A stretch of DNA of 64,000 nucleotides from Escherichia coli (GTDB lineage: Bacteria; Pseudomonadota; Gammaproteobacteria; Enterobacterales; Enterobacteriaceae), in NCBI RefSeq assembly GCF_003991155.1, contig NZ_CP031293.1; one strand, written 5' to 3'. The notes beneath the pieces were generated by a model, which did not search any database, was not told the DNA's origin, and saw nothing but the letters and a program-made list of their open reading frames with translations. The stretch's first letter is position 1, and each line of letters starts with the position of its first letter. Shown piece by piece: positions 3,164-28,533 of the stretch. Position numbers and translations under genes: made by a program.

Positions 3164-5302
3164 ATGACACCGCATGTGATGAAACGAGACGGCTGCAAAG
3201 TGCCGTTTAAATCAGAGCGCATCAAAGAAGCGATTCTGCGTGCAGCTAAAGCAGCGGAAGTCGATGATGCCGATTATTGCGCCACTGTTGCTGCGGTTGT
3301 CAGCGAGCAGATGCAGGGCCGCAACCAGGTGGATATCAATGAGATCCAGACCGCAGTTGAAAACCAGCTGATGTCGGGGCCATACAAACAACTGGCTCGT
3401 GCCTACATCGAGTACCGTCACGATCGCGACATTGAACGTGAAAAACGCGGTCGCCTGAACCAGGAGATCCGTGGTCTGGTCGAGCAGACCAACTCCTCGT
3501 TACTCAACGAAAACGCCAACAAAGACAGCAAGGTGATTCCAACCCAGCGCGACCTGCTGGCCGGGATCGTGGCTAAACACTATGCACGCCAGCACCTGCT
3601 GCCGCGTGACGTGGTGCAGGCACATGAGCGTGGCGATATTCACTATCACGATCTCGATTACTCACCGTTCTTCCCGATGTTCAACTGCATGTTGATCGAC
3701 CTGAAAGGCATGCTGACCCAGGGCTTTAAAATGGGGAACGCCGAGATTGAACCGCCGAAGTCGATCTCTACGGCAACCGCGGTAACTGCGCAGATTATTG
3801 CTCAGGTCGCCAGCCATATTTATGGCGGCACCACCATTAACCGTATCGATGAAGTGCTGGCACCGTTTGTCACCGCCAGCTACAACAAACATCGCAAGAC
3901 CGCAGAAGAGTGGAACATCCCGGACGCCGAAGGCTACGCTAACTCTCGTACCATCAAAGAGTGCTACGATGCCTTCCAGTCGCTGGAGTACGAAGTAAAC
4001 ACCCTGCATACCGCCAACGGTCAAACGCCGTTTGTAACCTTTGGTTTTGGTCTGGGCACCAGCTGGGAATCGCGCCTGATTCAGGAATCGATCCTGCGTA
4101 ACCGTATCGCAGGCCTCGGTAAAAACCGTAAAACTGCGGTGTTCCCGAAACTGGTGTTTGCGATTCGCGATGGCCTGAACCATAAAAAAGGCGATCCGAA
4201 CTACGACATCAAACAGCTGGCGCTGGAGTGCGCAAGCAAGCGCATGTATCCGGATATCCTGAACTACGATCAGGTAGTGAAAGTCACCGGTTCGTTTAAA
4301 ACCCCGATGGGCTGCCGCAGCTTCCTCGGCGTGTGGGAAAATGAAAACGGCGAGCAGATCCACGATGGTCGTAACAACCTCGGCGTGATCAGCCTGAACC
4401 TGCCGCGTATTGCTCTGGAGGCAAAAGGCGATGAAGCCACCTTCTGGAAGCTGCTGGATGAACGTCTGGTGCTGGCACGTAAGGCGCTGATGACCCGTAT
4501 CGCTCGTCTCGAAGGCGTGAAAGCGCGCGTAGCCCCGATCCTCTATATGGAAGGTGCTTGTGGCGTGCGTCTGAATGCTGACGATGATGTTTCTGAAATC
4601 TTCAAAAACGGTCGTGCGTCTATTTCGCTGGGTTACATCGGCATCCACGAAACCATTAACGCGCTGTTTGGCGGCGAGCATGTGTATGACAACGAGCAGC
4701 TGCGCGCGAAAGGTATCGCCATTGTTGAACGTCTGCGTCAGGCGGTGGATCAGTGGAAAGAAGAAACGGGTTACGGTTTTAGCCTTTACAGCACGCCAAG
4801 TGAAAACCTGTGCGACCGCTTCTGCCGTCTCGATACCGCTGAGTTTGGCGTGGTGCCGGGCGTGACTGATAAAGGTTACTACACCAACAGTTTCCACCTC
4901 GATGTGGAGAAGAAGGTGAACCCGTACGACAAGATCGACTTTGAAGCGCCTTACCCGCCGCTGGCGAACGGTGGTTTCATTTGCTACGGCGAATATCCAA
5001 ACATTCAGCACAACCTGAAGGCGCTGGAAGATGTCTGGGATTACAGCTATCAGCATGTACCGTATTACGGCACCAATACGCCGATTGATGAGTGTTACGA
5101 GTGTGGTTTTACCGGTGAGTTTGAGTGCACCAGTAAAGGCTTCACCTGCCCGAAATGTGGTAACCATGACGCCTCCCGTGTGTCGGTGACTCGCCGCGTG
5201 TGCGGATATTTAGGTAGCCCGGATGCGCGTCCGTTTAACGCTGGTAAGCAGGAAGAAGTTAAGCGCCGCGTTAAACATTTGGGGAATGGGCAGATAGGTT
5301 AA
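3164..5302 (+). CDS. nrdD: Anaerobic ribonucleoside-triphosphate reductase (class III), 712 aa
   Basis: Translation MTPHVMKRDGCKVPFKSERIKEAI... matches NrdD; C-terminal glycyl-radical region and Cys-rich zinc site present. Confidence 0.97.
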   Translation: MTPHVMKRDGCKVPFKSERIKEAILRAAKAAEVDDADYCATVAAVVSEQMQGRNQVDINEIQTAVENQLMSGPYKQLARAYIEYRHDRDIEREKRGRLNQEIRGLVEQTNSSLLNENANKDSKVIPTQRDLLAGIVAKHYARQHLLPRDVVQAHERGDIHYHDLDYSPFFPMFNCMLIDLKGMLTQGFKMGNAEIEPPKSISTATAVTAQIIAQVASHIYGGTTINRIDEVLAPFVTASYNKHRKTAEEWNIPDAEGYANSRTIKECYDAFQSLEYEVNTLHTANGQTPFVTFGFGLGTSWESRLIQESILRNRIAGLGKNRKTAVFPKLVFAIRDGLNHKKGDPNYDIKQLALECASKRMYPDILNYDQVVKVTGSFKTPMGCRSFLGVWENENGEQIHDGRNNLGVISLNLPRIALEAKGDEATFWKLLDERLVLARKALMTRIARLEGVKARVAPILYMEGACGVRLNADDDVSEIFKNGRASISLGYIGIHETINALFGGEHVYDNEQLRAKGIAIVERLRQAVDQWKEETGYGFSLYSTPSENLCDRFCRLDTAEFGVVPGVTDKGYYTNSFHLDVEKKVNPYDKIDFEAPYPPLANGGFICYGEYPNIQHNLKALEDVWDYSYQHVPYYGTNTPIDECYECGFTGEFECTSKGFTCPKCGNHDASRVSVTRRVCGYLGSPDARPFNAGKQEEVKRRVKHLGNGQIG

Positions 5303-5321
5303 TCCTTCCCCCTCACCCTAA

Positions 5322-5343
5322 CCCTCTCCCTCAAGGGAGAGGG
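5322..5343. other. Perfect hairpin CCCTCTCCC-TCAA-GGGAGAGGG in nrdD-nrdG spacer
   Basis: Read directly; 9-bp stem, 4-nt loop, inside the 184-bp nrdD-nrdG intergenic region. Confidence 0.5.
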
Positions 5344-5486
5344 GACCGTTCCGTGCCCCTTCCTGATTCCCGACATAATGAATTGCCTCTGGCCAGTTTT
5401 TGTCGTCGCAAGGAGGCAAATGCGTAGCATCGGGGGACTTCGCCCGTACGCACCAGAGCATTCATGGCGTCAATTGAGAAGCGAAA

Positions 5487-5951
5487 ATGAACTTTCATCA
5501 GTACTATCCTGTCGACATCGTCAACGGCCCCGGCACTCGCTGCACCCTGTTTGTCTCCGGGTGTGTTCATGAATGCCCCGGTTGCTATAACAAAAGCACA
5601 TGGCGGGTAAATTCCGGTCAGCCATTTACCAAAGCAATGGAAGACCAGATCATTAACGATCTGAATGACACTCGTATCAAACGCCAGGGGATTTCCCTCT
5701 CCGGCGGCGATCCGCTGCATCCGCAAAACGTGCCGGATATTCTGAAACTGGTACAACGCATCCGCGCCGAGTGTCCGGGTAAAGACATCTGGGTGTGGAC
5801 AGGCTATAAACTCGACGAACTCAACGCTGCGCAAATGCAGGTTGTTGATTTGATTAACGTGCTGGTCGACGGCAAATTTATGCAGGATCTAAAAGACCCT
5901 TCCCTGATCTGGCGCGGCAGCAGCAATCAGGTGGTGCATCATTTACGTTAG
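5487..5951 (+). CDS. nrdG: Anaerobic ribonucleotide reductase activating protein (radical SAM), 154 aa
   Basis: Translation MNFHQYYPVDIVNGPGTRCTLFVSGCVHECPGCYN with Cys cluster; follows nrdD. Confidence 0.95.
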   Translation: MNFHQYYPVDIVNGPGTRCTLFVSGCVHECPGCYNKSTWRVNSGQPFTKAMEDQIINDLNDTRIKRQGISLSGGDPLHPQNVPDILKLVQRIRAECPGKDIWVWTGYKLDELNAAQMQVVDLINVLVDGKFMQDLKDPSLIWRGSSNQVVHHLR

Positions 5952-6242
5952 TCACTCATCCAGCCGTTTTGTCGCGTCTTCATAAACGGCTGAGTTTTCT
6001 CTCTTACCAATAGCTATCACCAACACGAGTAACTCTTTATCATTGACGGAATAGACCAGGCGATATCCCAGTGTGCGCAGCTTAATTTTGTAGCAGTCCG
6101 GTAAATCCCGCAGTTTAGCCGATGGATTGCGCGGCCTTTTCAGCACATCCTCAAGCTTTTTTTTAAATTGTTCCCGGACTGTCACGCCCAGTTTTTGCCA
6201 CTCTTTCAGCGCCCGCGGATCAAACGCCAGCTCATAGTTCAT
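5952..6242 (-). CDS. RelE/ParE-family type II toxin (mRNA interferase), about 96 aa
   Basis: Translation from MNYELAFDPRALKEWQKLG...LPDCYKIKLR..GYRLVY...GKRENSAVY closely parallels remembered K-12 RelE; start chosen by alignment to RelE (longer ORF start at 6320 rejected). Confidence 0.8.
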   Translation of the reverse strand: MNYELAFDPRALKEWQKLGVTVREQFKKKLEDVLKRPRNPSAKLRDLPDCYKIKLRTLGYRLVYSVNDKELLVLVIAIGKRENSAVYEDATKRLDE

Positions 6243-6474
6243 CCAGTCGGACCTTAATGGCCTCTTGTGGGTTGGCCAGTCGTTCCCTGACAGTGCGTAA
6301 CAAGGCTTCTTCACTATCACTGACAGTGAGCGTTTTTACCGGCATTCGTCCATTTTCCGCAACGTACTGAAACAGCAGCCGCACTGCTTCAGTAGGCGTA
6401 ATATTTAATTTTTCCAGCACCGCATAAGCCTCATTTTTCAGTTTGTCATCCAGGCGGACGTTAAGTGTGGCCAT
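6232..6474 (-). CDS. RelB/DinJ-family antitoxin (ribbon-helix-helix), 80 aa
   Basis: Translation MATLNVRLDDKLKNEAYAVLEKLNITPTEAVRLL...RLDEL parallels K-12 RelB; 3' end overlaps toxin start by 11 nt (typical coupling). Confidence 0.8.
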   Translation of the reverse strand: MATLNVRLDDKLKNEAYAVLEKLNITPTEAVRLLFQYVAENGRMPVKTLTVSDSEEALLRTVRERLANPQEAIKVRLDEL

Positions 6475-6497
6475 TATGCCTCCGGTAATTATGAAAA

Positions 6498-6533
6498 GTG
6501 TAATGCATTATAGCATTACATATGCATTACATT
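6498..6533. promoter_or_regulatory. Repeated palindromic motifs (TGTAATGCATTA / GCATTACA / TGCATTACATT) upstream of the antitoxin gene; candidate autoregulatory operator
   Basis: Read directly; TAATGCATTA is a perfect palindrome and TGCATTACA-like half-sites repeat three times. Confidence 0.5.
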
Positions 6534-6633
6534 CATTTCTGGAAAACGCCTCGCAAAAATGAGGACGACACGCAGGAATATGCCGTGGTGAAGATAGATA
6601 TTGCGGTGATTTTACGAAGGGAGAAGAAAGCGT

Positions 6634-6660
6634 TGGGCGGTAACGTTTCACCGCCCAATA
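6634..6660 (-). terminator. Stem-loop (GGGCGGT...ACCGCCC) downstream of cybC
   Basis: GC-rich inverted repeat just 3' of cybC stop on minus strand; weak U-tract. Confidence 0.4.
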
Positions 6661-26465: not shown

Positions 26466-26482
26466 CCCCAGAAACATCAACG

Positions 26483-26510
26483 GCTCCCGAATCAGGAGCC
26501 GTCTTATTAC
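26483..26510 (+). terminator. Stem-loop GGCTCC-CGAATCA-GGAGCC followed by T-rich tail after ytfL
   Basis: Read directly after ytfL stop. Confidence 0.55.
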
Positions 26511-27056: not shown

Positions 27057-27614
27057 ATGACCCTACGCAAGATTCTGGCACTCACCTGCCTGCTGTTGCC
27101 GATGATGGCTTCCGCACATCAGTTCGAAACCGGTCAGCGAGTGCCGCCGATTGGCATCACCGATCGTGGCGAGTTGGTGCTTGATAAAGATCAGTTTAGC
27201 TACAAAACCTGGAACAGCGCGCAGTTAGTGGGAAAAGTGCGAGTACTGCAACATATTGCTGGTCGCACCTCTGCAAAAGAGAAAAACGCGACGCTGATTG
27301 AAGCGATTAAATCAGCGAAGTTACCGCACGATCGTTACCAGACCACCACCATTGTTAACACCGACGACGCAATTCCGGGTTCCGGCATGTTTGTGCGCAG
27401 CAGTCTGGAGAGTAATAAAAAGCTTTATCCCTGGTCGCAGTTTATTGTTGATAGCAATGGCGTCGCACGCGGTGCCTGGCAGCTGGATGAAAAAAGTTCC
27501 GCTGTAGTGGTGCTGGATAAAGACGGTCGCGTGCAATGGGCCAAAGACGGGGCGCTTACTCAGGAAGAGGTGCAGCAAGTGATGGACCTGCTGCATAAAT
27601 TAATTAATAAATAG
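27057..27614 (+). CDS. ytfJ: Periplasmic protein YtfJ (184 aa)
   Basis: Translation [31 protein letters not shown]... with signal peptide. Confidence 0.88.
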
Positions 27615-28344
27615 ACACTCTGAACCCCGGATTCAGGAACGACTCGCGCGGAGTGTAATCCAGCGGTTTACCCTGCCAGTCGTGAACGTGCGCTCCGGCA
27701 GCCGCAGCCACAGCATGACCAGCGGCGGTATCCCAAATATTCGTTGGCCCGAAACGCGGGTACAGCTGCGCCTGTCCTTCCGCCACCAGGCAGAATTTCA
27801 GCGAAGAGCCGATGGACGTGGTCTGATGTTCGCCAAGCTGTTGCAGATACTCTTTCAGCTCCGCATCTGCATGGGAACGGCTGATCACCACCAGCGGCGG
27901 GCGCGCATCACGGACCTGAATCTGCTTGCGCACGCCGCACTCTTCTTTCCACGCTTTGCCTTCTGCCGCGCTGTACATTACGTTCATTACCGGCGCATAC
28001 ACCACACCTAAAATCGGTTTGCCGTGGTCGATGAGCGCAATGTTAACGGTAAATTCGCCATTACGTTTAATAAACTCTTTAGTACCATCCAGCGGGTCTA
28101 CCAGCCAGTAACGCTGCCAGTGCTGACGGACTTCCCAACCGGGAGGATCTTCTTCAGAAAGGACCGGAATATCCGGTGTCAGCGTACGTAAACCGTCCAT
28201 GATAACGGTGTGTGCGGCAATATCCGCTGCCGTTACCGGAGAATTGTCCGCTTTGCTGACGACGTCCATCGGTTTCGTCCCGTCGTAGACCTGCATAATG
28301 GCATCGCCTGCATTCCGTGCAAGCTGGCATACTTGATCTAACAT
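27604..28344 (-). CDS. cysQ: 3'(2'),5'-bisphosphate nucleotidase (246 aa)
   Basis: Translation [22 protein letters not shown]...; inositol monophosphatase-family motifs. Confidence 0.95.
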
Positions 28345-28533
28345 TTCTCCACCTCGTCTCTGTGAGCGGTGTTAACTTATTGTTTTACTTATACCCTATC
28401 GTTAATGAATGCGCCAACTGTGATAGTGTCATCATTTTCAAAGCGTAAAATTGTGGCATTCTTCACTGTTCTATAAGTAAGACGTTTATTCTCCCTTTTC
28501 TTTCGTATTCCCGATGATAAAAGGATGTCCCTG

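Follow-up and report, generated by a model that had tools for sequence, protein, structure and literature searches.

The overlapping ytfJ-cysQ junction of Escherichia coli and a conserved hairpin embedded in the end of ytfJ

The ytfJ-cysQ junction in the window

The stretch of DNA analysed here, hereafter the window, comprises 64,000 nt of Escherichia coli contig NZ_CP031293.1 (assembly GCF_003991155.1) and carries the genes ytfJ and cysQ in tail-to-tail orientation. The features considered at their junction are the following.

27057-27614, plus strand: ytfJ coding sequence, 185 aa, stop codon TAG at 27612-27614 (open reading frame list, Pfam, and RefSeq annotation of the identical locus)
27604-28344, minus strand: cysQ coding sequence, 246 aa, stop codon TAA at 27606-27604 (open reading frame list, Pfam and RefSeq annotation)
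27604-27614, no strand assigned: tail-to-tail overlap of the two coding sequences, 11 nt, TTAATAAATAG (sequence and open reading frame list)
27595-27613, no strand assigned: run of 19 nt consisting of A and T only, covering the spacer and the overlap (sequence comparison)
27571-27595, minus strand: hairpin with a 10-bp stem and a 5-nt loop, within ytfJ codons V166-H174 (folding)
27620-27636, minus strand: terminator-like hairpin in the 3' coding end of cysQ, CTGAATCCGGGGTTCAG (consensus scan)

The product of ytfJ is a periplasmic protein of the YtfJ_HI0045 family (Pfam PF09695 at 1.5e-77), and that of cysQ is a 3'(2'),5'-bisphosphate nucleotidase (Pfam PF00459, Inositol_P, at 8.6e-52). The shared sequence encodes the last residues of both proteins, N K and stop for YtfJ, and I Y and stop for CysQ. 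An initial annotation of this DNA had placed the ytfJ stop at 27614 and the cysQ stop at 27604, with an 11-nt convergent overlap and no gene between the two. The coordinates and the open reading frame list show this geometry to be exact, and the list contains no open reading frame between ytfJ (plus strand) and cysQ (minus strand) in the window.

The same 11-nt overlap is annotated by RefSeq/PGAP in all four independently sampled E. coli genomes that lack ytfI, and the junction sequence of these genomes is identical to that of the window. Because the junction is identical in other strains and the overlap is conserved across Enterobacteriaceae (see below), the overlap is neither a product of chance nor a strain-private feature. 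In addition, the surrounding 25 kb (window 15001-40000) are 100% identical to several E. coli chromosomes, such as those of 2016C-3878, CREC-544 and MRY15-117. The A/T-only run of E. coli results from four clustered GC to AT changes relative to other Escherichia (AAGTTGCTC to AAATTAATT), one of which replaces Leu by Ile in YtfJ. In other Escherichia, ytfJ ends with CAT AAG TTG CTC AAT AAA TAG, and the older AAG TTG CTC codons are retained by K-12.

The ytfI polymorphism and the ancestry of the overlap

The initial annotation had also expected an extra small gene, ytfI, at this position in K-12. Such a gene exists, since in K-12 MG1655 ytfI (b4215) separates cysQ from ytfJ, but with 939 nt and 312 aa it is hardly small. 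MG1655 does not show the overlapping arrangement, and the expected difference between the window and K-12 is thus upheld by the comparison. The extra DNA of K-12 at the junction measures 1,225 bp by BLAST alignment (~1.2 kb), and the G+C content of the ytfI segment is 29-38%, as against 50-60% in the flanks. Among 5426 complete E. coli genomes, the uninterrupted junction, defined by a contiguous match to a 321-nt query, is present in 3794, and the ytfI segment is present in 1623 (~30%), all of which are genomes other than those 3794; together the two classes account for essentially all of the 5426. The two haplotypes have common edges (left, ...CTGCTGCA; right, AAATAGACAC...), between which the strains without ytfI carry TAAATTAATTAAT, 13 bases of A and T only, and K-12 carries ~1.24 kb, so that the difference is not a clean indel. 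At the ends of the K-12 islet, which share only AAATA, neither terminal inverted repeats nor a convincing target-site duplication were found.

A previous study described ytfI as a K-12-specific, H-NS-bound insertion that is absent from strains SE11 and SE15 (Higashi et al. 2016, PLoS Genet, PMC4720273, S10 Fig). The locus and the polymorphism are the same as those considered here, and the window matches the ytfI-absent strains; however, in that paper the case serves as an example of H-NS spreading, and the overlap, its ancestry across genera, the frequency of the two states in the population and the transcript ends are not addressed there. The presence or absence of ytfI is an already published and common polymorphism, and the window has the default form. 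The difference between strains is therefore of little weight, with ytfI occurring in such a share of E. coli, and it is K-12 that is the atypical reference at the cysQ-ytfJ locus.

For the polarity of the difference, the ytfJ loci of 80 other species were fetched, from a search that detected at least 268 loci, and both stop codons were located in each. An overlap of 11, 7 or 4 nt exists in ~74 of the 80 Enterobacteriaceae species sampled. The 11-nt form occurs in other Escherichia, Citrobacter, Salmonella arizonae, Klebsiella, Raoultella and Kosakonia, the 7-nt form in Enterobacter, Lelliottia, Pluralibacter and Leclercia, and the 4-nt form in Yokenella, Trabulsiella and some Kluyvera. The stretch from the His codon to the ytfJ stop measures 21 nt in the window, a length shared with E. 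whittamii, Citrobacter, Salmonella and Klebsiella; in each case the two genes overlap by 11 nt. Since the junction of the window has exactly the outgroup length, the direct overlap is ancestral, the empty site is no deletion scar, and ytfI is a derived insertion. The "strain difference" of the initial annotation is real in that the window differs from K-12; however, its polarity has to be reversed, because K-12 represents the derived minority and the overlap the ancestral majority.

In six of the 80 loci, something lies between ytfJ and cysQ (positions are those of the fetched loci).

Divergent Escherichia (L011): insert of 1,230 bp with ytfI, the protein being 69% identical to that of K-12 (ytfI at 3661-4575, minus strand, in L011 and at 5708-6646, plus strand, in the K-12 locus L001)
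E. albertii NBRC 107761 (L013), 3792-4949: insert of 1.5 kb with 33% G+C, carrying a pentapeptide-repeat gene (385 aa)
C. youngae ATCC 29220 (L050), 3507-5679: insert of 2.13 kb, encoding a TIGR04222 membrane protein and a radical-SAM/SPASM enzyme
Kluyvera genomosp. 1 (L064) and K. cryocrescens (L067), ~3553-4431: insert of 0.9 kb, carrying a peptidase S11 (D-Ala-D-Ala carboxypeptidase-like) gene on the minus strand
K. intermedia (L073): insert of 71 nt, spacer only, with a CAGCAG/CUGCUG hairpin resembling that of ytfJ

The reverse polarity, in which K-12 is ancestral and ytfI was deleted from a K-12-like ancestor to leave the overlap of the window, would fit the replacement of 1.24 kb by 13 A/T-only bases rather than a clean indel, as well as an islet old enough for YtfI to have diverged to 69% identity between two Escherichia lineages, but it is extremely unlikely, as the direct overlap of ~74 of the 80 other species effectively refutes it, and the outgroup length of the window junction (21 nt from His codon to stop), the absence of any remaining ytfI scar, and the low-GC, H-NS-bound character of the islet, which is typical of acquired DNA (PMC4720273 for H-NS), all stand against it.

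The cargos inserted at the cysQ-ytfJ junction are mutually unrelated, and an integrase or transposase was found in none of them. The simplest reading is that the junction is the only place nearby where an insertion breaks nothing, rather than a targeted site. In C. youngae, the insert lies between two direct repeats of 42 nt, which are 95% identical and include the ytfJ hairpin; the cysQ-proximal repeat keeps a perfect stem, and the ytfJ copy bears a lesion.

Several further observations concern the cargos themselves. The pentapeptide-repeat protein of E. albertii is weakly similar to the type III effectors PipB/PipB2 and to the N-terminus of a HECT-type effector, suggesting that it is possibly the product of an effector gene. 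In C. youngae, the tail of the TIGR04222 protein is rich in Cys and Gly and is specified by five tandem repeats of 15 nt; this protein and the radical-SAM/SPASM enzyme resemble a peptide-maturation pair. YtfI has no match among the Pfam and NCBIfam families, and a PADLOC match to Cas6b (E = 8e-4), which extends over 41 residues only, was treated as chance. In the divergent Escherichia whose YtfI is 69% identical to that of K-12, CysQ and YtfJ are 98.8% and 95.6% identical, respectively, to the proteins of the window. The orphan YtfI is either very fast evolving or old, and its divergence is compatible with the H-NS 'diversification' idea of PMC4720273. Meanwhile, E. coli ETEC1738 (L003, NZ_CP122768.1, 3001-4294) has an IS1 in place of most of the ytfI islet, of which the first 164 nt are left, and ytfJ, truncated by that IS1, is annotated as a pseudogene without its C-terminus.

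A hairpin within the last codons of ytfJ

The initial annotation had concluded that the overlap leaves no room for a terminator. There is indeed no intergenic space; however, the terminal part of ytfJ contains a conserved stem-loop, which in the cysQ sense begins 8 nt beyond the cysQ stop. On that strand it reads UGCAGCAGGU-CCAUC-ACUUGCUGCA and contains one G.U pair. A 73-nt cysQ-sense segment with the hairpin folds at -19.6 kcal/mol (z = -3.0), and 0 of 200 shuffled sequences are as good. Over 82 loci, the minimum free energy of the hairpin ranges from -17 to -20 kcal/mol, as against ~-8 kcal/mol for synonymous recodings, with a mean z of -2.46 and p<=0.05 at 87% of the loci. The hairpin of E. 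coli is weaker than those of other genera, at -13 to -15 kcal/mol, under either arrangement of the junction.

The constraint acts at the nucleotide level. Among 25 genus representatives, the stem codons GTG CAG CAG and CTG CTG are almost fixed at their synonymous sites (mean relative entropy 0.12), and the loop codon V169 and the Leu codons downstream show free synonymous variation. Among 13,860 matched Val/Gln/Gln/Leu/Leu codon sets from elsewhere in ytfJ, not one equals the conservation of the stem codons. In several Escherichia a CAG:CTG pair has been replaced by CAA:TTG, a compensatory change that represents only one such event, and the covariation is thin, most stem pairs being invariant and uninformative either way. 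The palindrome of 27571-27595 occurs only once in the 64-kb window, and an origin as a dispersed repeat was rejected. The asymmetry of wobble pairs was considered as an indicator of the strand and found uninformative, since coding constraints alone lead 5 of the 7 synonymous transitions that are possible to a G.U in the cysQ sense (5:2).

The hairpin has the G+C-rich stem-loop of an intrinsic terminator (10 bp, with the segment energy and z given above). However, no U-tract follows the stem: the cysQ-sense tail, CCUCUUCCUGAG / CCUCUUCC, has 4 U in its first 8 nt, and the count in these 8 nt is mostly 3-4 across the 82 loci. A consensus terminator scan did not call the hairpin at 27571-27595. 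Because of the missing U-tract, the ytfJ-embedded hairpin is probably no classical intrinsic terminator. Bidirectional intrinsic terminators are reportedly found between convergent genes (Ju et al. 2019, Nat Microbiol). The junction is like these in having a single palindromic hairpin between convergent stop codons that can fold on both strands; in contrast to them, it has no flanking A- or U-tracts, with 4 U in 8 nt on the cysQ-sense strand, and its hairpin lies upstream of the stop codon in the ytfJ sense, so that it would make no sensible terminator for ytfJ.

Two other elements were noted in the coding sequences. The terminator-like hairpin at 27620-27636 was rejected as a selected element, since it is no stronger than synonymous recodings in the window (z = -0.29, p = 0.35) and reaches p<0.05 in none of ~74 species; it was judged a likely by-product of encoding LNPGFR. 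A second invariant synonymous patch of ytfJ lies at 27195-27206, where F41 (TTT), S42 (AGC) and K44 (AAA) are unchanged in 25 of 25 genus representatives, and is unrelated to the 3' hairpin.

The state of the hairpin is associated with the neighbour of ytfJ. The ytfJ copy bears lesions of the inner pairs at 5 of the 6 loci with ytfJ and cysQ separated and at 7 of the 75 with an overlap (Fisher p = 1.7e-4, the loci being counted without phylogenetic correction, and ~4-5 independent insertion events lying behind the separated set). Outside Escherichia, the corresponding numbers are 4 of 4 and 5 of 70, and the three Kluyvera species with an insertion have three different lesions. Meanwhile, a strong hairpin lies 5-15 nt beyond the stop of cysQ in all of the separated arrangements, its sequence differing by lineage: K-12 has that of the islet, E. 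albertii has its own, C. youngae has retained a duplicate of the ytfJ hairpin, and new ones are found in Kluyvera. Six more distant ytfJ homologues (46-55% identity), taken from representatives of 50% clusters, were also compared. Among these, only the ytfJ that overlaps cysQ possesses the embedded hairpin (L090, z = -1.9). In another (L091) it is weak, and the 52-nt gap carries a hairpin of its own. It is absent from the four distant loci with a downstream neighbour other than cysQ, in which the peptide motif also differs, and two of these four have classic intergenic terminators. Because the lesions track separation, cysQ always keeps a hairpin and the distant ytfJ loci follow the same pattern, the hairpin is tied to cysQ and not to ytfJ.

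It is unlikely, on the same evidence, that the hairpin instead serves ytfJ, through mRNA stability, translational pausing or termination, or that it is a side effect of codon preference in the peptide VQQ..LLH. Gln and Leu are most often encoded by CAG and CTG, respectively, random recodings already fold at about -8 kcal/mol, and in half of the sequences the outermost pair is a G.U on the ytfJ-sense strand, all of which would be expected under such a reading. However, none of the 13,860 matched codon sets equals the conservation of the stem, and codon choice is free at further Leu, Val and Gln positions that are invariant in YtfJ. In the ytfJ sense, the hairpin ends 18 nt upstream of the ytfJ stop (the H174 codon ends at 27596 and the stop starts at 27612), and a role in ending the ytfJ mRNA is argued against because a transcript that ended or was trimmed there would have no stop codon. 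Moreover, the hairpin is absent from ytfJ where cysQ is not next to it, and decays once cysQ has been displaced.

Ends of the cysQ and ytfJ transcripts

Transcript ends have been mapped in K-12, in which the islet intervenes. The primary cysQ 3' end is at 4437540/4437542, at the base of the islet hairpin and not at the ytfJ-embedded one (Adams et al. 2021, PMC7815308, Supplementary files 1 and 2). The same data set places one Rho termination region at 4437751 (+), ~210 nt beyond the cysQ 3' end, and another at 4438394 (-), 314 nt beyond the stop of ytfJ (PMC7815308). These maps, with the cysQ 3' end and the Rho regions lying within ytfI, are not transferable to most E. coli or to Salmonella.

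Rho-dependent transcripts of E. coli have been found to end at stable stem-loops without U-tracts, which shield them from PNPase and RNase II (Dar & Sorek 2018, NAR, PMC6061677). Downstream of the cysQ stop there is likewise a stable stem-loop without a U-rich 3' sequence, soon after the stop codon. The untranslated RNA that follows may also be C-rich and G-poor in a rut-like manner; the C/G ratio of the cysQ-sense RNA past the stop, a measure of composition only, is 1.94 in the first 100 nt (hairpin included) and 1.40 in the next 100 nt. In K-12, the analogous cysQ hairpin coincides with the mapped 3' end, and the Rho region follows ~210 nt downstream (PMC7815308), as in that class. The junction differs from the class in that the stem-loop lies within the coding sequence of the convergent neighbour, under a dual constraint, and is known here from sequence. 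We infer from this likeness that the hairpin acts on the cysQ strand, as the protective 3'-end stem-loop of a Rho-terminated cysQ mRNA, by way of Rho and exonucleases.

Combining these elements, we consider the following explanation of the locus likely as a whole. The compact junction is ancestral, and K-12-type strains have gained a 1.2-kb low-GC, H-NS-bound islet with the orphan ytfI, which entered within the few nucleotides that lie from the ytfJ end to the stop of cysQ. Elsewhere, since there is no intergenic DNA, each transcript must end inside the other gene. Past its stop codon, the cysQ RNA would run through 8 nt of A/U and then the stem-loop encoded opposite the last codons of ytfJ (27595-27571), and RNA polymerase would continue into untranslated, C-rich RNA antisense to ytfJ, within which Rho would end transcription. 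The 3'-5' exonucleases might then trim the RNA back to the embedded stem-loop, which would protect the cysQ mRNA from there on. The ytfJ transcripts would have no comparable selected structure downstream and would probably be terminated by Rho inside antisense cysQ.

The palindrome at 27571-27595 might instead act as DNA rather than as an RNA hairpin, for example by serving a dimeric protein as its operator or by being a target of recombination or integration. The conservation of the arms around a free spacer of 5-7 nt is the pattern of a palindromic binding site, five independent insertions have occurred within ~20 nt of it, and the insertion of C. youngae is flanked by the 42-nt direct repeats that contain it. 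However, the compensatory CAA:TTG change alters the sequence and preserves the pairing, the hairpins of unrelated sequence that follow cysQ in the separated lineages fit a structural rather than a sequence-specific need, and the mapped cysQ 3' end of K-12 lies at the base of such a hairpin. Clustering of insertions is expected under selection as well, since an insertion elsewhere would break a gene, and the cargos are without integrase or transposase. We regard a DNA-level role as unlikely.

A stronger formulation, which we hold with about even confidence, is that the end of ytfJ is in dual use, encoding the C-terminal helix of YtfJ on one strand and, on the other, a stem-loop that would define and protect the end of the Rho-terminated cysQ mRNA. 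The near-invariant synonymous sites across Enterobacteriaceae would then reflect this second function, and insertions at the junction would be tolerated only when a substitute hairpin is brought or retained next to cysQ. The embedded cysQ 3' hairpin is probably new, although a modest detail of a type already known. The locus provides a clean natural case in which the 3'-end structure of one gene is embedded in the coding sequence of its convergent neighbour, with a measurable synonymous constraint and several insertion lineages as natural "relaxation" controls, and it is suited to asking how Rho-terminated mRNAs gain protective stem-loops where there is no intergenic DNA.

Some neighbouring elements were also recorded. 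An Rfam match to s2m inside cysQ scored 20.6 bits against a gathering score of 50 bits and was treated as chance. On the minus strand, window 28411-28533 gives a full-length Rfam match to the ES239 sRNA (RF02756), with 157 bits against a gathering score of 62 bits; the match lies in the divergent intergenic region between cysQ and cpdB, on the cysQ strand, just upstream of the cysQ start codon. Finally, the consensus scan detected a strong bidirectional terminator-like hairpin at 26479-26503, between paeA (ytfL) and ytfK, the K-12 counterpart of which is a Term-seq 3' end of high coverage at 4439860 (+) (PMC7815308, Supplementary file 1).
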